A stretch of 64,000 nucleotides of DNA from Candidatus Saccharimonadales bacterium. GTDB taxonomy: Bacteria; Patescibacteriota; Saccharimonadia; Saccharimonadales; UBA7683. The notes beneath the pieces are model-generated. The model was not told where the DNA came from and did no database searches. It worked only from the letters and a program-made list of their open reading frames with translations. The stretch is taken from contig JAXMAA010000002.1 of assembly GCA_046350615.1 (NCBI GenBank), forward strand, positions 277,204 to 341,203, in the 5' to 3' direction. This document shows, piece by piece, positions 14,648 through 61,424 of the stretch. Numbering within the stretch: position 1 is the stretch's first letter; each line of letters begins with the position of its first letter. The position numbers and the translations under genes are program-made.

Positions 14648-14721
14648 TGGCTGGGGATGAGGGATTCGAACCCCCGATCCTGGGACCAGAACCCAGTGCC
14701 TTACCGCTTGGCCAATCCCCA
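14648..14721 (-). tRNA. tRNA-Gln (anticodon CTG), CCA encoded
   Basis: Reverse complement TGGGGATTGGCCAAGCGGTAAGGCACTGGGTTCTGGTCCCAGGATCGGGGGTTCGAATCCCTCATCCCCAGCCA. It has a 7-bp acceptor stem, a GTTCGAATC T-loop and anticodon loop TTCTGGT, and is close to E. coli tRNA-Gln. Confidence 0.9.
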
Positions 14722-14808
14722 ATAACTTTGTAATTTGTTTCTGGAACGGATTGATTATACCTAAAAATGGTGCGTTTGTCAGTAGCTGAAGCCCGGATTC
14801 ATTAGTGC

Positions 14809-14889
14809 GTCATCTTGAGCGAATTCGAAAGACCTGACTGATTCATTACGTTATTTACTAGACCCTTCGATGCCGCTCAGGTAATAGAC
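14809..14889. repeat. GTCAT-hairpin palindromic repeat element (inverted pair of modules)
   Basis: GTCATCTTGAGCGAATTCGAAAGACCTGAC (14809-14838) and, inverted, GTCTATTACCTGAGCGGCATCGAAGGGTC (14861-14889). Same family as 26.3, 37.2, 43.4, 55.0 and 58.5-58.8 kb. Confidence 0.6.
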
Positions 14890-14945
14890 GGCGGTGGAGT
14901 TTGGGGATAGTATCTGCTATACTTATAAATACATTAACAACGTAA

Positions 14946-15065
14946 CAATATAAAGAGTGTGGCGAGAGATCTAGCTCGTTGACCCACCGGCAACCTACGA
15001 TTATTTAGGGTTTTCCTTGGATATCGAAAGGTGCTCCAACTAGCCGCGTGAGCGGAAAGATATTG
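14946..15065 (+). promoter_or_regulatory. S-box / SAM-I-like riboswitch aptamer
   Basis: P1 CAATAT/ATATTG (14946-51 / 15060-65); AAGAG; GTGG...CCAC P2; conserved GGCAACC and AAGGTGC blocks; P4 CCGC-GTGA-GCGG. Downstream gene is a Cys/Met-metabolism PLP enzyme. Confidence 0.65.
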
Positions 15066-15072
15066 TGATTTT

Positions 15073-17163: not shown

Positions 17164-17771
17164 GGCAAGTTCGAGGTTAGAAAGTGCAACCCTTGGGCAT
17201 CGCCGCCGCTTATCTCTGCAAGTAGATTGATGGCCTGTTTGCTTATTCGCTTAGTGGCTTTTTCAAGTTTTATAGCTCGCTTGATAATTGCCACCATATC
17301 TTCTTTGCTGTGCGGTTGAAGAACGATTATGCGGGATCGTGAAAGCAGTGGTGCAATAACCTCAAAGCTTGGGTTCTCGGTAGTAGCACCGATGAGGGTA
17401 ATGAGGCCGGATTCGACATGGGGTAAAAATGTATCTTGCTGGCTTTTAGAAAAGCGGTGGATCTCATCAATAAATAGCAAGGTTCTTTTTTGCAGGTTCC
17501 AGTTAACCCGGGCACGCTCAACAACCTGTACCACCTCGGCTTTTTTGGCCGTAACTGCGGAAAGCTCTACAAAATCTATGGCAAGCTCGGTGGCAATAAT
17601 GCGCGCCAGAGTAGTCTTGCCTGATCCTGGCGGCCCCCAAAAGATCAAACTGGTCGGCTGTTTCTTTTTAATAATCTCGCGAATAATATCACCTTGTTTG
17701 GTCAGGTGATTTTGGCCAATATATTCATCCAGTGTTTTGGGCCGCATCCGTTCGGCGAGTGGTTGCTCCAT
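17025..17771 (-). pseudogene. rarA: RarA/MgsA, N-terminal AAA+ fragment
   Basis: MEQPLAERMRPKTLDEYIGQ..., Walker [10 protein letters not shown], Walker [11 protein letters not shown]. After ...AEISGGDA the frame runs into nonsense, and the other frame reads RVALSNLELALQLAEK. A 1-nt deletion near 17192-17198 would explain it. Confidence 0.8.
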
Positions 17772-17813
17772 AGTTCTATTGTAACCCGACCACGAAAAAT
17801 CTATACTAGGGCC

Positions 17814-18314
17814 ATGAGCGATATCACAAAACAAGATCTCGACAATCTAGAGGAACGGCTTTCTAAAAAGATTGACAGCCAAGGGGTGGAGCTTCGTAAG
17901 GAGATTAAAGAATCCGGTAATCAACTCCGTAAAGAAATTAAAGAATCCGGTAATCAACTCCGTAAAGAAATTAAAGAATCCGGTAATCAACTCCGTAAAG
18001 AAATTAAAGAATCCGGAGATCAACTTCGCAAGGAGATCAAAGAATCGGCAGATACTGTGCTGGAAGTTATAAGTAGTCTTGCGACTTCATCGAGCAACCA
18101 ATTTATTCAAATTGACCAAAAACTTGAAGATTTACGTGCCGATCTTACAATCATAAAACGTCAAATCAATAACATTAATGCTGATATTGACAGGGCATTC
18201 AAAAACAAAACCGTTACTGAAGAGGAGACAACTGCGCTCATTGCCGGACAACGTCGTCTGGAGCGGTGGGTTGAGCAGATTGCCTCAGAGACTGGCATCA
18301 AGCTAACCGCATAG
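17814..18314 (+). CDS. Coiled-coil protein with five tandem 11-residue repeats (LRKEIKESGNQ)
   Basis: ATG 17814 (MSDITKQDLDNLEERL...). The track start 17694 would overlap rarA's 5' end on the opposite strand. Confidence 0.55.
   Translation: MSDITKQDLDNLEERLSKKIDSQGVELRKEIKESGNQLRKEIKESGNQLRKEIKESGNQLRKEIKESGDQLRKEIKESADTVLEVISSLATSSSNQFIQIDQKLEDLRADLTIIKRQINNINADIDRAFKNKTVTEEETTALIAGQRRLERWVEQIASETGIKLTA
17892..18056 (+). repeat. 5 x 33-bp in-frame tandem repeat (three central copies identical)
   Basis: CTCCGTAAAGAAATTAAAGAATCCGGTAATCAA units at 17925, 17958 and (with two changes near its end) 17991, flanked by diverged copies at 17892 and 18024. Confidence 0.9.
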
Positions 18315-26292: not shown

Positions 26293-26480
26293 AAACCCGA
26301 ATCACGAAACTCCACCCCTGTCATCCTGAGCGTAGTCGAAGGATCTGGCGACTATTAACAGGTGAAGTTAGATCTTTCCTCCTTCGCTGAAGCTACGGTG
26401 GACAGGTCGACAAGCTCAAGATACCTGAGTCTCAAAACTCACCAGTGTCATCCCGGACTTGATCCGGGATCTGGATTCCC
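26293..26480. repeat. Left half of a composite palindromic repeat (GTCAT-hairpin family) split by an IS
   Basis: Outer arm AAACCCGAATCACGAAAC (26293-26310) and inner arm ACCTGAGTCTCAAAACTCAC (26423-26442) have reverse-complement partners at 27655-27672 and 27608-27628. Modules GTCATCCTGAGCGTAGTCGAAGGATC and GTCATCCCGGACTTGATCCGGGATC. Confidence 0.75.
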
Positions 26481-27578
26481 GTATTAACCGCATAATTTCG
26501 GTTGACCCTCTAAGCACTGTACGTCCTTTGAGTTGCGCAGTACATAGGTAACCCATCCTTCGTAGGCAGTTGGTGTACGCCAACCTCGAGCCTTGTTTTG
26601 CAGTGCCCGTACTCTTCGAAAGCTAGATTCACAGCTATTGTTGGTTGCGGGTAAATGCAACTCTGGATAGTATAGATAGCTTCGGTAGTCTCGGAAGTTT
26701 TGTACTAATCCTCGTAAAATACTTGCAACTTCGGTTCTGGGTGTTTGCATCGCATAATCACTCAATAGCCCGAGCACCCTAGAGACCCGCTCGTCATCGG
26801 GTGACTCCAGTACTATATGCACCAGTTCATGCACCCAGTATGTCTCGGGTGTAGCTCGGTGCCATAGTCGCATGTTCTTGTTGAGCTCTTTCAGTACATG
26901 AAAGCAGCATCGTTGCTGCACCCAGCCTCGCTGCCTCGCAATACGTAGGAGCCCCCGATGTCCATCGCTGACGAGTGCTCTTGTTTGAGCAAGCATCTCT
27001 GAGGGAACATGCGAGAGTGCTCTTTGCCACCCAATGCCGGTTTCAGCACCTCGAGCCGTTGTGGTGGCGCACACTGCAGCCCGATTACTCCGGAGCGGGC
27101 GTACGAGAATGAGATATGTAACGTACTGCACCGCACCTATCTTTTGATGCAGTGCATCTGCAAGAAGGATATGAGGCTCTACGCAGGTCATAGACTCTTT
27201 GGCGGCAGCACGAACGACACTTTCCCGAGCAGAAACGACCCTTCGCTGGATGGTAGACGGTGTGTAGCTTGTGCGCTGAGCATGAGCAGCAAGCGACCCA
27301 ATACAGTTACACCGGTACAGCTCAAGTAGATGTACATCTGGCCGCCTCTTTTTTGGACCTCGTTTTGCAGGGTATACTCTCCAGGTTTGTTTACAGGCGG
27401 CACATTGTCTTCGTTTGCCACCGTAGCGTCGCACACGGGCGCTGCAGCAGGTGCTTTTTTGTTGTCGTATTTCCATACACCAGAAAAGCACAGCCACCCA
27501 TGATTATCCAGCCCTTTTTACAGATGGCAGGTCGTGAGCAGTGCAAGTGAGGGTCAACCGAAATTATGCGGTTAATAC
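26481..27578 (-). mobile_element. Insertion sequence, IS256-like (about 1.1 kb, 30-32-bp perfect terminal IRs, 8-bp direct repeat)
   Basis: IR-L GTATTAACCGCATAATTTCGGTTGACCCTC (26481-26510) equals the reverse complement of 27549-27578. GGATTCCC flanks both ends (26473-80, 27579-86). The IR/TSD boundary is ambiguous by up to 2 bp (4-8 bp TSD). Confidence 0.85.
26484..27497 (-). CDS. DDE transposase (IS256/Mutator-like motif spacing) with N-terminal Cys-rich zinc-finger-like segment
   Basis: LLADALH (D), LVSDGHRGLLRIARQ...QQRCCFHV (D), TNNSCESSFRRVR (E+R); D-63-D-110-E spacing; the stop codon lies inside IR-L. Confidence 0.75.
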   Translation of the reverse strand: MAVLFWCMEIRQQKSTCCSARVRRYGGKRRQCAACKQTWRVYPAKRGPKKRRPDVHLLELYRCNCIGSLAAHAQRTSYTPSTIQRRVVSARESVVRAAAKESMTCVEPHILLADALHQKIGAVQYVTYLILVRPLRSNRAAVCATTTARGAETGIGWQRALSHVPSEMLAQTRALVSDGHRGLLRIARQRGWVQQRCCFHVLKELNKNMRLWHRATPETYWVHELVHIVLESPDDERVSRVLGLLSDYAMQTPRTEVASILRGLVQNFRDYRSYLYYPELHLPATNNSCESSFRRVRALQNKARGWRTPTAYEGWVTYVLRNSKDVQCLEGQPKLCG

Positions 27579-27672
27579 GGATTCCCGTCTTCACGGGAAT
27601 GACGGATGTGAGGTTTTGAGACTCAGGTCAAGATGACACAGAAACAGATCGGGGGTTTCGTGATTCGGGTTT
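27579..27672. repeat. Right half of the composite palindromic repeat split by the IS
   Basis: ATTCCCGTCTTCACGGGAATGAC hairpin module, GTGAGGTTTTGAGACTCAGGT (27608-27628) and GTTTCGTGATTCGGGTTT (27655-27672) mirror the left half. Confidence 0.75.
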
Positions 27673-37218: not shown

Positions 37219-37328
37219 CCTCCACCCCTCAAATCCTCTCGTCCGTCATTCCCGAGCGAGCGGGAATCCAGTTCAAATACCAGATCCCGGATCAAGTCCG
37301 GGATGACACAGAGGGGCTTAGAGGGTCG
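37219..37328. repeat. GTCAT-hairpin palindromic repeat element
   Basis: CCCCTCAAATCCTCT...GTCATTCCCGAGCGAGCGGGAATCC...GATCCCGGATCAAGTCCGGGATGAC...AGAGGGGCTTAGAGGG; outer arms are inverted copies. Confidence 0.7.
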
Positions 37329-43435: not shown

Positions 43436-43537
43436 CTCTCAAAACCCCAAGCTTGTCATTCCCGACTCCGATCAGGAATCTATAGTAAATCACTGGATCC
43501 GCCATGGCGGATGACAGACAGGGTTTTGAGGCTCAGG
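43436..43537. repeat. GTCAT-hairpin palindromic repeat element
   Basis: CTCTCAAAACCCC...GTCATTCCCGACTCCGATCAGGAATC...GGATCCGCCATGGCGGATGAC...GGGTTTTGAGGCTCAGG; same outer-arm motif (CAAAAC / GTTTTGAG) as at 26.4/27.6 kb. Confidence 0.7.
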
Positions 43538-55002: not shown

Positions 55003-55021
55003 AATAAAACCGCTTTCTGCT

Positions 55022-55046
55022 GTCATCCTGAACTTGATTCAGGATC
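55022..55046. repeat. Solo GTCAT-hairpin module
   Basis: GTCATCCTGAACTTGATTCAGGATC (stem TCCTGAA / TTCAGGA). Confidence 0.6.
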
Positions 55047-55098
55047 CAGACAAAACAGTTGGTCGAAAGTATTAAATATAAGATAGAATAGATACCAT

Positions 55099-57480: not shown

Positions 57481-58055
57481 AAAACGCAATCTTAATTCCA
57501 GGTAGACCAGACAAAGACGAACATTACGACCCAGCACGACGCTCAAACAGTGAAGACCACTGGTTTAGTTGGCTCAAGCGTCAGCTAATACTCAAGGATA
57601 TCCATACAGTTTCAATTGAGCTGCCCTTTCCGTTTCGGCCGAGATACGATGAATGGAAGCGGGAATTTGAGCGTTTTGACATAACGCCAGAAACAACTCT
57701 TGTTGGCCACAGCTGTGGCGGAGGATTTTTAGTACGTTGGCTGAGCGAGAATAAAAATATCAAAGTTGGCAAAGTTGTTCTGGTCGCGCCATGGATAAAC
57801 CCGCTGAACTACGAAGTTTCTGATACCGCCGACTTCTTTGATTTTGAAATTGACTCAGAGTTTCCAGCTCGAACAAAGGGTGTAAGCGTGTTTATTTCTA
57901 GCGATGACGAACCGAGTGTGGTAAGAACTGTAAATATTCTGAAAGAAAAAGTGCAAGGCATAACCTACCGTGAATATACAGACAGAGGCCACTTTACGTA
58001 CGGCGTCATGCAAACTGACGATTTTCCCGAGCTACTACAGGAGGTATTAAGATGA
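57477..58055 (+). CDS. YdeN/RBBP9-type serine hydrolase (alpha/beta fold)
   Basis: ILIPGRPD...; nucleophile elbow VGHSCGG; C-terminal D...GHF. Confidence 0.65.
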   Translation: MKNAILIPGRPDKDEHYDPARRSNSEDHWFSWLKRQLILKDIHTVSIELPFPFRPRYDEWKREFERFDITPETTLVGHSCGGGFLVRWLSENKNIKVGKVVLVAPWINPLNYEVSDTADFFDFEIDSEFPARTKGVSVFISSDDEPSVVRTVNILKEKVQGITYREYTDRGHFTYGVMQTDDFPELLQEVLR

Positions 58056-60676
58056 AAATTAGTTTGAACTGGGTGAAGCAATATACGGATGTCGATCTTT
58101 CTACTGATGAATTGGTGAAGTTGGCAACTGAACGTCTTGGTGGAGTTGAAGGTGTTATTGATCTTTCGAAGCAATATGAGGGTATTATTGTGGCTAAGGT
58201 TGTTTCATGCGTAAAGCATCCTAACGCAGATAAGCTTTCGCTTTGTAAAGTTGATGACGGCAGAGTTGTGGGTGATGTGGCCCGTGATGAAAATGGCTAT
58301 GTGCAGGTGGTGTGCGGCGCACCGAATGTGCGTGAAGGGCTTTTGGTGGCATGGATTCCGCCAGGTGCGACTGTTCCAGCTAGTTATGGTGAAAAAGAGC
58401 TGTTTGTTTTGGAGGCGCGTGATCTGCGAGGCGAAACAAGCAATGGCATGCTGGCGAGCCTCGCAGAATTGGGTCTGGGCGATGATCATTCGGGTATTTT
58501 GGAGATTGATCCTGAAGAAAAGACTGCCGGTATGCCTCATCCTGAGCCTGTCGAAGGATCTAGTGGCGGTAGCAGCGGGGAGCAGATCTCTCGACAAACT
58601 CGAGATGACAATACCGTGAAGCCAGGAACACCTTTCAAAAATCTGTATGATCTTGATGACACAATTCTAGAAATTGAAAACAAGATGTTTACACATCGAC
58701 CCGATGGTTTTGGTCATCTCGGCGTAGCGCGAGAGATTGCTGGTATTCAGCATAAGGCATTCAAATCTCCAGAGTGGTATTCACAGCGCGTCATTTCGAC
58801 CGAAGTGGAGAAATCTGACCAAGGTTCTCGAAAAGCTCAAGATGGCCTAGCAAGTGGTCTCAGTGTGTCAATTCAAGATGGCGATCTTTGTCCACGTTAT
58901 ATGGCGGTGGTGCTTGAAGATGTCAAAATTGCGCCAAGCCCGCTTTGGCTGCAAAGTTACTTGAAGCGAGTAGGCGTGCGTCCAATCAATAATGTTGTTG
59001 ATGTAACTAACTACATGATGTTACTTACCGCGCAACCGCTTCACGCTTTTGATTTCGACAAGATAGCGAGAGACGGCAAGGCCGAAATTACCGTTAGAAG
59101 GCCAAAAGACGGCGAAAAAATGACGTTGCTTGACGGCAAAACACTTGAGCCTCATAAAGACGCAGTTTTAATTTGTAGCGAAGCTGGCCCAATTGCGCTT
59201 GGCGGCATCATGGGCGGTGGCAATTCTGAAGTTGATGAAAATACGAGGCGGATTGTTTTGGAGTGCGCTACTTTTGATATGTATAACATCCGAAAGACAA
59301 GTATGGTCCACGGTATTTTCACAGATGCTGTAACCCGTTTCACTAAAGGCCAGCCAGCAGCTCAATTACCGCCGGTTATCGTTAAAGCCATCAGTATGTT
59401 CGAGGAGTTGGCACGCGCTAAGCAAACTGGAGAGATTGTGGATACTGCAGTTGCGAATTACGACCAACGATCAACAAATCACGATTACATCGAAATTGAT
59501 GCGAAATTTATTAATGATAGACTTGGCTCGAAGTTCAGTAACGAGCAAATTATCCAGCTTCTTACTAATGTTGAAATCGAGGCTCACGAGGCTTCCGGCC
59601 CAATTGAAGTACGTCCACCGTTTTGGCGAACCGATCTTGAAATCAAAGAAGATATCGTGGAAGAAATCGGTCGTCTCTATGGCTTTAATCAGCTTCCAAT
59701 CGCGCTACCAGAGCGGAGCATCGCACCAATAACTCCGGATTCAACACGAACACTCAAAGCAAAAATCAGAGGCGGCTTTGCAAGGGCCGGCGCTAATGAG
59801 GTCCTCGGCTACAGCTTCGTTCACGGAAACTTGCTAGCCAAAGCCGGCCAAGATTCAACACGAGCATACGCAATCAGGAATGCGCTAAGCCCCGATCTTC
59901 AGTACTACCGCCTCAGTTTATTGCCAAGTTTGCTTGAAAAAGTTCACCCCAATATTAAAGCGGGATATGGGCAGTTCAGCCTGTTTGAAATCGGTAAAGT
60001 GCACTACAAAGGTGAAATGGATGAGAGAGAGCTAAATGTACCGAATGAGGATGATCACGTTGCTTGCGTGATTGCGTATGACACAAAGGTGGCCCCGAAG
60101 GGTTCACCATATTATGCAGCCCGTCGATACTTAGCTGAAATAGATTCCGACCTTGTCGAGTCGCTTGTTCCTATGAAAGATTTCAATCTTGCGGCCGACG
60201 AATGGGGTCAGCAGCTTGCTGCGCCGTACGAACCAGATCGCAGCGCACTCGTTGTGGTTGATAATCAAATTTGGGGCGTAGTTGGCGAATTTAAAACGAC
60301 AATTCAAAAGGCCTTTAAGCTTCCGGATTATGCCGCCGGATTTGAAGTTCACCTCGGTGTTTTGCAATCAAAAGAAGTGGGTTACAAACCACTTTCAAGA
60401 TTCCCATCAAGCGAGCAAGATATCACGCTCAAAGTCGCCAGTAGCGTGAACTATGCCGAACTAGCATCGAGCCTTGCCCAGATCATGGAAGACAGTGAGT
60501 ACCAATACACACTTGAGCCACGTGGTATCTATCAAAAAGAACCTAAGACCAAAAACATTACTTTCCATCTCACGCTCTCTCACCGCGAACGCACTCTCAC
60601 CACCATCGAAGTCAATAAACTAGTAGAGAACTTAACTTGGCAGGCCCACGAACGGTTCGCAGCCGAGCAGGTTTAA
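58052..60676 (+). CDS. pheT: Phenylalanine--tRNA ligase beta subunit, with two repeat-derived in-frame insertions
   Basis: 874 aa; N-terminal tRNA-binding domain (VKHPNADKLSLCKVD), B3/4, B5 and C-terminal FDX-ACB domains in the usual order. Confidence 0.95.
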   Translation: MKISLNWVKQYTDVDLSTDELVKLATERLGGVEGVIDLSKQYEGIIVAKVVSCVKHPNADKLSLCKVDDGRVVGDVARDENGYVQVVCGAPNVREGLLVAWIPPGATVPASYGEKELFVLEARDLRGETSNGMLASLAELGLGDDHSGILEIDPEEKTAGMPHPEPVEGSSGGSSGEQISRQTRDDNTVKPGTPFKNLYDLDDTILEIENKMFTHRPDGFGHLGVAREIAGIQHKAFKSPEWYSQRVISTEVEKSDQGSRKAQDGLASGLSVSIQDGDLCPRYMAVVLEDVKIAPSPLWLQSYLKRVGVRPINNVVDVTNYMMLLTAQPLHAFDFDKIARDGKAEITVRRPKDGEKMTLLDGKTLEPHKDAVLICSEAGPIALGGIMGGGNSEVDENTRRIVLECATFDMYNIRKTSMVHGIFTDAVTRFTKGQPAAQLPPVIVKAISMFEELARAKQTGEIVDTAVANYDQRSTNHDYIEIDAKFINDRLGSKFSNEQIIQLLTNVEIEAHEASGPIEVRPPFWRTDLEIKEDIVEEIGRLYGFNQLPIALPERSIAPITPDSTRTLKAKIRGGFARAGANEVLGYSFVHGNLLAKAGQDSTRAYAIRNALSPDLQYYRLSLLPSLLEKVHPNIKAGYGQFSLFEIGKVHYKGEMDERELNVPNEDDHVACVIAYDTKVAPKGSPYYAARRYLAEIDSDLVESLVPMKDFNLAADEWGQQLAAPYEPDRSALVVVDNQIWGVVGEFKTTIQKAFKLPDYAAGFEVHLGVLQSKEVGYKPLSRFPSSEQDITLKVASSVNYAELASSLAQIMEDSEYQYTLEPRGIYQKEPKTKNITFHLTLSHRERTLTTIEVNKLVENLTWQAHERFAAEQV
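58536..58609. repeat. GTCAT-hairpin palindromic element inside pheT (insertion 1)
   Basis: CTCATCCTGAGCCTGTCGAAGGATC (58536-60) matches the intergenic module GTCATCCTGAGCGTAGTCGAAGGATC at 26.3 kb at 22 of its 25 bases (one-base gap). An inverted partner GATCTCTCGACAAACTCGAGATGAC lies at 58585-58609. Encodes ...PHPEPVEGSSGGSSGEQISRQTRDD... Confidence 0.65.
58790..58846. repeat. GTCAT-hairpin palindromic element inside pheT (insertion 2, 57 bp = 19 codons)
   Basis: GTCATTTCGACCGAAGTGGAGAAATCTGAC (58790-58819) plus an inverted module whose reverse complement GCCATCTTGAGCTTTTCGAGAACC (58823-46) resembles GTCATCTTGAGCGAATTCGAAAGACC at 14809. Confidence 0.55.
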
Positions 60677-60683
60677 CCTTTCC

Positions 60684-60727
60684 AAAGACGGTTCTCGGAA
60701 ATATGAAAGACGGTTCTCGGAAATATG
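60684..60727. repeat. 2 x 22-bp perfect tandem duplication
   Basis: AAAGACGGTTCTCGGAAATATG at 60684-60705 and 60706-60727, immediately after the pheT stop. Confidence 0.9.
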
Positions 60728-60738
60728 AAAATGATGGT

Positions 60739-61356
60739 TTAATAGTCAGCTAGTTCGTGCTTGATTTTTTCTAGTGCATCGTGCGTATCTTTGTAGTCGT
60801 TTACAAATTCTAGATAATCCGAGTGCGTTTCTTTAAATTGGTCTAATATTTTTTGTGGACTAACCCAAGCGGCTTGTTTTGCGCCCAAGTAGTACGGAAG
60901 GCTTGAGTACTCCCATTGCATGTAGTCTCTGGGGTTCAAATGAATATAGCGCGAAACATGTTCGAGATATTCATCGCTCGTAATCATTGAAGCCTTAAAC
61001 CGATCTTGAAATAGCGGCCCGACACGCCTGTAGCGCTTGTTGTAGTGCTTGGTGTACGATGTGGCGACCCCTCTCAGTAACCGTGTCATTGCCTCGGGTT
61101 CAACTTGATAAACCAGTAGGTGAAAGTGGTTGGGCATCAAGCAAAATGCGAGTAATTCCAATATTGGATGTAACCAATCATATTCGCGCCCTTTGTTGTC
61201 TCGAGCAGGTTCTCTGTCAAGGTAGCGTTTTAGAAGGTTTAAAAACACAGCGTAATCTTGCTTATCATGAAAAATTACCTGCTTTGCAACCCCACGATTG
61301 TAAATATGATAGTAGCAATCCTCAAGATAAATTTTTTCACGGTTTTTACTCGACAT
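60739..61356 (-). CDS. IS200-like / REP-associated tyrosine transposase family protein (COG1943), second copy
   Basis: YHIYNRGVAKQVIF..., HUH motif PNHFHLLVY, HYNKRYRRVGPLFQDRFKA, SRYIHLNP; paralogue of 21532-22161. Confidence 0.8.
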   Translation of the reverse strand: MSSKNREKIYLEDCYYHIYNRGVAKQVIFHDKQDYAVFLNLLKRYLDREPARDNKGREYDWLHPILELLAFCLMPNHFHLLVYQVEPEAMTRLLRGVATSYTKHYNKRYRRVGPLFQDRFKASMITSDEYLEHVSRYIHLNPRDYMQWEYSSLPYYLGAKQAAWVSPQKILDQFKETHSDYLEFVNDYKDTHDALEKIKHELADY

Positions 61357-61424
61357 GAATATATATTAAACAATCAAAACTAAATTTCCAAGAACCGTCT
61401 TCGGAAACGTGATAAAATGGAGAT

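Follow-up and report, generated by a model that had tools for sequence, protein, structure and literature searches.

Two palindromic repeat elements very probably lie embedded within pheT, the gene for the beta subunit of phenylalanine-tRNA ligase (PheT), in an uncultured Candidatus Saccharimonadales bacterium (Saccharibacteria/TM7) of the Candidate Phyla Radiation (CPR). The gene lies in a 64,000-nucleotide stretch of DNA, here called the window, which is part of a metagenome-assembled genome (MAG). On this reading both segments are non-autonomous elements resembling repetitive extragenic palindromes (REPs), and they would be translated as disordered surface loops. The reading is carried by their membership in a repeat family, by copies of that family at other positions in genomes and within genes, by their in-frame and stop-free state, by the disorder predicted for the encoded residues and by their patchy presence among relatives. 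An earlier note on this DNA had proposed repeat elements in pheT, and both module sequences that it quoted are indeed present, CTCATCCTGAGCCTGTCGAAGGATC at 58536-58560 in insertion 1 and GTCATTTCGACCGAAGTGGAGAAATCTGAC at 58790-58819 in insertion 2.

The pheT open reading frame (ORF) is intact, and its product matches, at 100% identity, a protein that NCBI lists for a Candidatus Saccharimonadales MAG under the name phenylalanine--tRNA ligase subunit beta. Saccharibacterial PheT is usually 824-836 amino acids long, with a range of 824-960 among close relatives, so the 874 residues of the window protein amount to a surplus of about 44. The surplus sits in two segments, at residues ~156-188 and 247-265. 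For comparison with relatives we utilised the 120 closest PheT proteins, aligned with MAFFT, and counted any gain of at least 8 amino acids as an insert. On the DNA level, a covariance model termed R1 was trained on eight intergenic units, with pheT left out, and the whole window was scanned with it without filters. Plain-sequence alignments were judged by their Smith-Waterman scores against 60 dinucleotide-preserving shuffles. The gene and the elements within it are:

58052-60676, plus strand: pheT, 874 amino acids, with the Pfam domains tRNA_bind (residues 45-155), B3_4 (280-454, E = 6e-58), B5 (480-545), the catalytic-like tRNA_synthFbeta (549-768) and FDX-ACB (782-872).
58517-58615, plus strand: insertion 1 as delimited by protein alignment, residues 156-188, EKTAGMPHPEPVEGSSGGSSGEQISRQTRDDNT; 99 nt, 33 codons.
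58529-58615, plus strand: core palindrome of insertion 1 (87 nt, 29 codons, residues 160-188), in which two REP-like units form an inverted heterodimer.
58533-58565, plus strand: left unit of insertion 1, CCTC tag, stem ATCCTGAG/CGAAGGAT, loop CCTGT; R1 18.7 bits, E = 0.021.
58580-58612, minus strand: right unit of insertion 1, TGTC tag, stem ATCTCGAG/CGAGAGAT; R1 21.6 bits, E = 0.0038.
58789-58846, plus strand: insertion 2, a REP-like dimer encoding (R)VISTEVEKSDQGSRKAQDG, residues 247-265, with an intact left and a decayed right unit.
58787-58820, plus strand: left unit of insertion 2, CGTC tag, stem ATTTCGAC/GGAGAAAT, tail CTGA; R1 28.6 bits, E = 6.4e-5, the best non-training match in the window.

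The units share a common anatomy, consisting of an unpaired tag (CGTC, TGTC or CCTC), a stem of eight positions that starts with A and then T, a loop of 4-6 nt and a short tail (CCAG, CTGG or CTGA). A strict structural definition built on this plan recovered 10 units in the window versus 1.5 ± 1.2 (maximum 7) in 200 shuffles, and a looser definition recovered 14 versus 2.1 expected. All ten strict units resemble family members; seven are intergenic and three lie in pheT (58535, plus strand; 58610, minus strand; 58789, plus strand). In the R1 ranking, the eight training units are followed directly by the three pheT units (E = 6.4e-5, 0.0038 and 0.021) and then by an intergenic unit that had been left out of the training, and the scan of the window gave no convincing match in any gene other than pheT. 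With the three pheT units as the model's best non-training matches, the reading frame open and all domains intact, the idea of repeat elements lying in frame within this gene holds. Ungapped pattern searches of the window with up to three mismatches matched both modules only to themselves. The family is too divergent for such searches, hence the need for a structural definition and a covariance model.

Across 30 distinct units, the tag is CGTC in 13, TGTC in 14, CCTC in two and TCTC in one, the pheT units having CCTC (58535), TGTC (58610, minus strand) and CGTC (58789). Every stem starts AT...AT, but the scan itself demanded TCAT. The eighth stem pair, which was not imposed on its own, is Watson-Crick in 26 of the 30 units, with four pair types that covary. 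Intergenic units are paired at up to 7-8 of the eight positions, and the three pheT units at six of eight, with G.A/A.G at positions 6-7. Such a tandem G.A/A.G followed by a Watson-Crick pair occurs in 12 of the 30 distinct units, and standard energy models give it no credit. Under the eight-position parse the loop measures 4 nt in nine units, 5 nt in 11 and 6 nt in ten. The tail reads CCAG in eight of the 30 and otherwise CTGA, CTAG or CTGG; the pheT units have CTAG, CTGC and CTGA. A possible fourth pheT unit at 58713-58741 (GGTCATCTCGGCGTAGCGCGAGAGAT; GGTCATCTCGGCGTAGCGCGAGAGATTGCT), which mimics the plan with GTCAT, a 5-bp stem and a GCGTAG-containing loop, passed the loose scan and was rejected. 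It fails the strict definition, is absent from the R1 matches at E ≤10 and encodes the GHLGVAREIAG motif that is conserved in all homologues; the likeness is probably due to chance.

Insertion 1 contains the inverted partner that the earlier note had described, in the form of 25-nt arms at 58537-58561 and 58584-58608 that are 76% complementary. The palindrome reaches further outward to GGTAT...ATACC (58529-58615), and this stretch folds as a single long imperfect hairpin with -13.1 kcal/mol (z -1.2). The left unit aligns with an intergenic copy at 26320-26346 over 24/26 positions with one gap, reaching a Smith-Waterman score of 40 against a null of 25.6 ± 2.8 (maximum 36; z = 5.2), and three control segments of pheT score at the null level. 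A reported identity of 22/25 to this module at 26.3 kb thus has to be revised: no ungapped match exists at up to three mismatches, while the gapped match of 24/26 is significant. The right unit agrees at 30 of 32 positions with the right unit of an element found in pheT of two other Saccharimonadales contigs, L082 (from Logan) and L083 (from JGI). In the protein alignment, at most 7 of the 120 homologues fill the columns of insertion 1, and 97 of the 120 are without an extra 8 amino acids at this position (site 1). Among the latter is the closest relative, the MAG locus L001 (protein P0002), with 77% PheT identity; its site 1 is empty, and the window is longer by 96 nt at the DNA level. E. coli PheT has 4 residues at site 1 versus 38 in the window. 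The spacer of insertion 1, SGGSSGE, is of low complexity.

Insertion 2 had been given as 57 bp and 19 codons, and 58790-58846 corresponds exactly to codons 247-265. The left of its two modules is intact, whereas the supposed right inverted module is decayed and escapes detection by R1. The 61-nt stretch 58788-58848, which holds the segment, folds no better than shuffled sequences (z +0.8). Its proposed resemblance to a copy at 14.8 kb amounts to 22/30 ungapped positions, which is not significant alone. The family membership of insertion 2 follows from the R1 match (E = 6.4e-5) together with a 49/56-nt alignment to the pheT element of L083 and L082, in which the left unit matches that of L083 at 29/29 positions. 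The matching element of these two loci sits at a different position of the gene, after FDFDKIA at about window residue 340 (site 3). The same element at different pheT sites in different organisms points to mobility, and an indigenous linker would not give such a pattern.

Could both segments instead be ordinary linker expansions, born of slippage or low complexity, whose likeness to intergenic repeats is a coincidence? Site 2, which holds insertion 2, is a linker that joins the conserved WY and L.V...CP motifs and varies in length; E. coli PheT has a gap of 15 residues there, and S. haemolyticus PheT a similarly long linker. Protein alignment alone is consequently not decisive at this site, and the DNA-level evidence decides. 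The low-complexity SGGSSGE spacer and the want of a significant plain match for insertion 2 within the window also speak for such an expansion. Against it stand the E values of 6e-5 to 0.02 that R1 gave without any pheT sequence in its training, the 49/56-nt match of insertion 2 to another pheT position in other organisms, the 24/26 match of insertion 1 to an intergenic copy and the tag-stem-loop-tail plan common to 30 distinct units. We regard this explanation as effectively refuted. The nucleotide similarity to repeats elsewhere, which the earlier note had singled out for checking, accordingly survives: segment 1 beats the shuffles on plain sequence, both segments are recovered with the structure-aware model, and for segment 2 the match to copies elsewhere is overwhelming.

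The left unit of insertion 2 has a wide distribution. Its 26-nt pattern, TCRTTTCGASCGAAGTSGAGAAATCT, is present on at least 120 metagenome contigs (L085-L204) and is not specific to Saccharibacteria. Among the matches listed, the contigs span 28-63% G+C and come from soil, gut, rumen and marine samples, and the unit lies mostly between genes. On unrelated metagenome contigs it also occurs in frame within the coding sequences of TruA (L176), a PrmC-like methyltransferase (L134) and TatD (L132). A protein search for further hosts, run with 50 residues of concatenated element-encoded peptide, yielded no candidates. Units of the insertion 2 type are the source of the common spurious-ORF peptides VISSEVEKS, SFRAKSRNL, CHFERSREIS and RFLDFARND.

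Within PheT, inserts among the 120 homologues cluster at five places, close to window residues 152-155, 253, 340, 513 and 830. Recognisable translations of units are present as peptides in about 23 of the 120 proteins. At site 1, 23 homologues are longer by at least 8 amino acids, 12 of them with such peptides. The unit-derived peptides include VIPAQAGI...LDSRLRGND, RHSERSE...RSFDSAQDD, LSSPGLTRGSS...LDSPIESEND, HPELDSGS...IPNQVRND and VISTEVEKSDQISRQARD. The subtype of the unit varies at one and the same site, as does its frame relative to the tag, and even close relatives may differ in the subtype at one site, as P0014 and P0015 do from P0024 at site 3. On the DNA level, units within pheT were confirmed in L001, L002, L008, L015, L081-L084 and L205. 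Deeper-branching Saccharibacteria, including the oral Nanosynbacter, have no inserts in PheT. The alignment of orthologues shows that both segments are extra relative to most relatives, although site 2 is a variable linker and not the fixed junction that had been assumed, and presence/absence polymorphism was seen between sister genomes. The largest accumulation is that of P0098 (L084, 6001-8883), a PheT of 960 amino acids with REP-like inserts at four to five loop sites, including a 66-residue compound insert at site 1; the 13-kb contig of L084 holds four more units in intergenic DNA.

To relate the inserts to the fold, PheT was modelled with AlphaFold2 from an alignment of 94 sequences, giving a mean predicted local distance difference test (pLDDT) score of 88.7. 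The sole stretches with pLDDT <50 are residues 163-183 and 250-261/263-265, which are coil and lie between secondary-structure elements. The two segments are thus the only long disordered loops of the model, in agreement with the earlier expectation that they are tolerated as surface loops; their exposure is suggested by the low pLDDT. All five recurrent insertion sites likewise fall between secondary-structure elements of the model. The encoded stretches are hydrophilic, as had been claimed, with grand average of hydropathy values of -1.44 and -1.18 compared with -0.31 for PheT overall. In each element just three of the six frames are open, and pheT reads the hydrophilic one; the other frames would give VCLILSLSKDLVAV... 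or run into stop codons. Examples of peptides predicted to span the junctions are ...EIDPEEK/TAGMPHPEPVEGSSGGSSGEQISR and VISTEVEK.

The window and L001 share 92-97% of their pheT nucleotides at 58052-58280 and 58650-59500. Around site 1, at 58277-58650, the identity drops to 65-82%, which is no better than that to relatives whose proteins are 61-65% identical. Over the full gene, the comparison with L001 (3001-5526) gives a mosaic in which blocks of 92-97% identity alternate with blocks of 45-80%, the latter including the whole 3' half from ~59600. Such a pattern suggests either recombination between diverged lineages or a chimeric MAG assembly. L081, whose PheT is 61% identical to that of the window, carries a homologous insert at site 1, including the ~24-nt left flank between the conserved GATCC and the first tag, and the region is 77% identical at the nucleotide level, close to the gene-wide divergence. 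A second version of the site-1 insert is common to L008 and L205. Taken together, the insert shared with L081 and the mosaic block suggest that insertion 1 probably either is old and patchily retained or was exchanged by recombination. A private recent origin of insertion 1 is therefore not upheld, given the homologous insert and flank in L081 and an absence from L001 that coincides with the recombination-like mosaic.

Two compensatory stem changes separate the window (58533-58612) from L081 (6482-6543). In the left unit, ATCCT/AGGAT faces ATTCT/AGAAT, a change of C-G to T-A at pair 3; in the right unit, G-C is replaced by C-G at pair 8. These differences could mean either that the hairpins are under some constraint or that different family members landed at one spot. 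Insertion 1 may have reached the lineage through an older pheT allele, by inheritance or by homologous recombination, with L001 holding a different allele of the block. We consider the chances of this route to be evenly balanced. The local fall in identity to L001 around site 1 and the homologous insert of L081, which has diverged about as far as the gene as a whole, argue for it. The mosaic could on the other hand stem from chimeric assembly of co-occurring strains, and the two compensatory differences could reflect independent insertions at one hot spot. This alternative concerns the route of arrival alone; relative to the ancestral gene, the element would still be a REP-derived insertion.

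A related concern is that the inserts themselves are assembly artefacts, that is, repeat-induced chimeric joins. The window does come from a MAG, repeats classically lead to misassembly, and pheT forms a mosaic when set against L001. Yet the frame is open through both inserts with all domains intact, insertion 2 is also present in a second MAG, and analogous in-frame inserts occur in JGI, ENA, Logan and NCBI assemblies. Moreover, one insert-bearing allele, that of P0039 with an insert at site 1, was assembled on nine contigs, which argues against an artefact. We hold this explanation to be highly improbable.

Alternatively, the inserts could have been co-opted, their loops or mRNA hairpins serving phenylalanyl-tRNA synthetase (PheRS), for instance by binding tRNA or a partner, by pausing translation or by affecting the stability of the mRNA, and being kept by selection. 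Consistent with a role of this kind, the five loop sites are repeatedly occupied by different subtypes, the hairpins stay able to pair through the compensatory changes that separate the window from L081, and the DNA of insertion 2 is 100% identical in two MAGs, the window and L001. In an ascertainment-neutral sample of 80 saccharibacterial pheT loci with 3-kb flanks, 12 of the 13 R1 matches at E ≤1 fall inside pheT, but with just four loci informative this preference is only suggestive. An enrichment of units in pheT of L081-L084 was discarded as evidence, these loci having been picked for their long PheT. Several findings run counter to co-option. The 97 homologues without a site-1 insert and the deeper Saccharibacteria without any indicate that no insert is required for function. 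Peptides at one site differ wholly between subtypes, the segments are predicted to be disordered, the intragenic hairpins are weak, and the identity of insertion 2 falls in a block that is 97% identical anyway. Co-option therefore appears improbable. More tentatively, and in our view still rather unlikely, pheT of the Saccharimonadales could be a preferred long-term harbour for cross-phylum CGTC-type hairpins, in which five loops are hit again and again by different unit subtypes, neighbouring genes are spared and the hairpins are kept pairable.

Outside pheT, the inverted dimer is the usual intergenic form of the family, and dimers are located at 37228-37323, 43438-43535 and 26431-27620 in addition to 58529-58615. 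The intergenic copies discussed here are:

14806-14888, no strand assigned: degenerate dimer, the copy at 14.8 kb; 14806-14839 is a training unit and its partner at 14856-14888 has E = 5.9.
26317-26350, plus strand: the unit whose sequence most resembles that of the left unit of insertion 1.
26431-27620, no strand assigned: composite with units at 26444-26476 (plus) and 27575-27606 (minus), split by an IS256-like insertion at 26481-27578.
37228-37323, no strand assigned: composite with outer inverted repeat CTCAAA... and inverted units at 37242-37273 (plus) and 37278-37310 (minus); DNA fold z = -2.4.
43438-43535, no strand assigned: composite CTCAAAACCC...GGGTTTTGAG with inverted units at 43452-43485 (plus) and 43491-43518 (minus); fold z = -3.0.
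55019-55051, plus strand: single unit upstream of pheS; its translation, HPELDSGS, also occurs in frame in other PheT homologues, at their site 2.

The outer inverted repeat CTCAAAACCC...GGGTTTTGAG is present on both the 37228-37323 and the 43438-43535 composite. The IS256-like element (IS, insertion sequence) within the third composite encodes a 337-residue Mutator-family transposase (ORF 26484-27497, minus strand) that scores under the NCBIfam IS256 cut-off. Its termini are perfect inverted repeats of ~30 nt, it sits inside the REP dimer, and a clean 8-bp target duplication, GGATTCCC, can be read from the sequence at 26473-26480 and 27579-27586. The whole nested cluster of REP dimers and insertion sequence is bracketed by a 21-nt inverted repeat, AAACCCGAATCACGAAACTCC (26293-26313 and 27652-27672, 95% complementary), which suggests elements inserted into elements. 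The dimer at 14806-14888 is flanked on one side by a tRNA gene (14651-14721, minus strand) and on the other by an S-adenosylmethionine (SAM) riboswitch (14945-15066, plus strand). An Rfam scan of the window returned tRNA and SAM riboswitch only, with no family at the repeat elements. A separate, head-to-tail array of a 33-nt repeat at 17859-18056, with about six copies (found as five overlapping 66-nt copies of 68-100% identity), lies within the ORF 17694-18314 and encodes LRKEIKESGNQ-like repeats.

Directly downstream of pheT lies a transposase cassette related to the REP-associated tyrosine transposases (RAYTs):

60677-61424, minus strand: RAYT-like Y1 (HUH) transposase cassette, 748 bp, with the ORF at 60739-61356.

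Its protein matches Pfam Y1_Tnp with E = 7.5e-9 and reaches 45 bits against NCBIfam REP_Tyr_transpos, under the cut-off of 80. The cassette is flanked by hairpin repeats of its own, TTTCCAAAGACGGTTCTCGGAAAT, as a tandem duplicate on the pheT side and inverted on the other, which are unrelated to the YGTC units. It sits between pheT and an ABC transporter gene and is absent there in L082-L084, where the two genes abut or overlap. The gene can be considered a candidate mobiliser, without a link to the units.

How, then, may the elements have come to reside in pheT? In the model that we favour, inverted dimers of CGTC- or TGTC-tagged hairpin units became embedded at loop or linker positions of PheT. 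They would have arrived by transposition, probably as single-stranded hairpin DNA moved by an HUH/Y1 enzyme, as has been proposed for REPs. Since pheT is essential, the only copies to survive would be those with a length that is a multiple of three, free of stop codons, hydrophilic and unstructured, at permissive sites. Surviving copies would be read through as loops, one of 33 residues after the tRNA-binding (B2) domain and one of ~19 residues in the linker before B3/4, and would be neutral or near-neutral for PheRS function. The recurrence at five sites could result from selection for permissive sites, possibly together with a target preference and the spread of alleles by homologous recombination.

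Several points weigh against embedded, mobile REP-like elements as the explanation. The fold of the intragenic copies is weak (z -1.2 and +0.8) compared with that of the intergenic composites (z -2.4 and -3.0). By plain alignment, insertion 2 has no significant relative in the rest of the window, its best score (z = 1.8) falling at an unrelated place. Sequence inspection of the insert boundaries in pheT revealed no target-site duplication, target motif or transposition event; such boundaries are compatible with single-strand hairpin transposition of the IS200/IS605/RAYT type, without proving it. A role of the neighbouring RAYT-like protein as the cognate transposase is unsupported, in view of its unrelated flanking repeats, its score below the RAYT cut-off and a cassette (60677-61424) in which R1 finds no match. 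Insertion 1 is probably old and patchily retained, or recombined, and not a fresh private insertion. Finally, translation of the inserts is deduced from the pattern of frames and stop codons across many independent inserts, and surface exposure from low pLDDT, rather than observed or measured. We nevertheless consider embedded REP-like elements to be very probably the right explanation.

The anatomy of the units is reminiscent of the CGTC-tagged REPs described by Di Nocera, De Gregorio & Rocco (2013, BMC Genomics 14:522; PMC3733652). As presented there, these REPs have a CGTC tag with TGTC and CCTC variants, stems of 8-9 bp that start with complementary A and T, loops of 4-5 nt and CCA-like tails. 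They frequently form dimers, often heterodimers, occur in five phyla, mostly in alpha-Proteobacteria, and have neither a flanking nor a dedicated transposase. Several species are reported to have intragenic copies, among them copies within genes for tRNA synthetases and pseudouridine synthases, and in two Xanthomonas species recB is occupied at about the same site by different REPs. The elements described here share the tag, the AT start of the stem, the inverted dimers and the mostly intergenic location with some in-frame copies, and they resemble these REPs in their short loop and tail, with modest deviations in the perfection of the stem, the length of the loop and the tail; within the window, a transposase gene flanked by units was likewise not found. 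There are also differences. The host belongs to the Saccharibacteria/CPR, and CPR lineages are not named in the published account used here. Watson-Crick pairs number only six of eight in many of the present units, the three of pheT among them, loops extend to 6 nt, tails vary, and some intergenic dimers carry outer inverted repeats (CTCAAAACCC). Nor does that account describe one gene being hit recurrently at five sites within a clade. The phenomenon of intragenic CGTC REPs, tRNA synthetase genes included, is thus already known from that work, and the lineage and the repeated colonisation of pheT are, to the extent of the published account used, the new part.

The earlier note had likened the elements to Rickettsia palindromic elements (RPEs), which were first described as ~150-bp sequences lying in frame in many Rickettsia genes (Ogata et al. 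2000, summarised in PMC10969869). The likeness holds at the level of kind, through the tag, AT-started stem, loop and dimers of the CGTC REPs, a class to which RPE-4 and RPE-6 have been assigned (PMC3733652); the link rests on this published assignment. Going by the summaries cited, both systems consist of selfish palindromic repeats between and within genes of a small-genome, host-dependent bacterium, in frame in housekeeping genes that are unrelated to each other and compatible with the fold and function of the protein. However, RPE-1 measures ~150 bp and has a conserved encoded peptide, whereas the elements here are 57 and 87 nt long, and one gene is colonised in this 64-kb window compared with dozens of genes per Rickettsia genome. 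With the REPIN/RAYT systems (REPINs being REP doublets; Bertels & Rainey 2011, PMC3116915), the elements share inverted doublets of REP hairpins as the non-autonomous unit, and a RAYT-like gene is present in the window. Whereas REPINs have GTAG-type REPs that flank their cognate RAYT, the units here carry a YGTC tag and the hairpins on either side of the RAYT-like gene are unrelated to them, so that no REP-RAYT link is shown. Unlike MITEs (miniature transposable elements with inverted repeats), the pheT copies have neither terminal inverted repeats nor target-site duplications, and outer repeats (CTCAAAACCC) occur only on intergenic composites. A full-text literature search, which did not cover all journals, found no paper linking Saccharibacteria, Patescibacteria or CPR with REPs or MITEs.

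In-frame palindromic selfish DNA in essential genes, best known from Rickettsia, would now extend to the CPR, a further group whose genomes are tiny, host-dependent and short of intergenic space. Our analysis adds the link to the CGTC REP class, the mobility of segment 2 and the repeated colonisation of the same five PheT loops in a Saccharimonadales clade. The inserts explain the length heterogeneity of PheT, a universal marker that ranges from 824 to 960 amino acids among close relatives, and they can distort marker-gene alignments and phylogenies. The units also generate many spurious small ORFs, recognisable by motifs such as VISSEVEKS, SFRAKSRNL and DSRLRGND. The recurrent loops map permissive sites of PheRS, and sites that are filled, empty or filled again provide comparative data on the movement of CGTC REPs. 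If pheT were indeed a preferred harbour, selfish DNA in this essential gene of an ultra-small genome would be either targeted by site or structure or actively maintained, instead of inserting at random and being passively tolerated, and the clade would be a natural system in which to find the enzyme that mobilises CGTC REPs.

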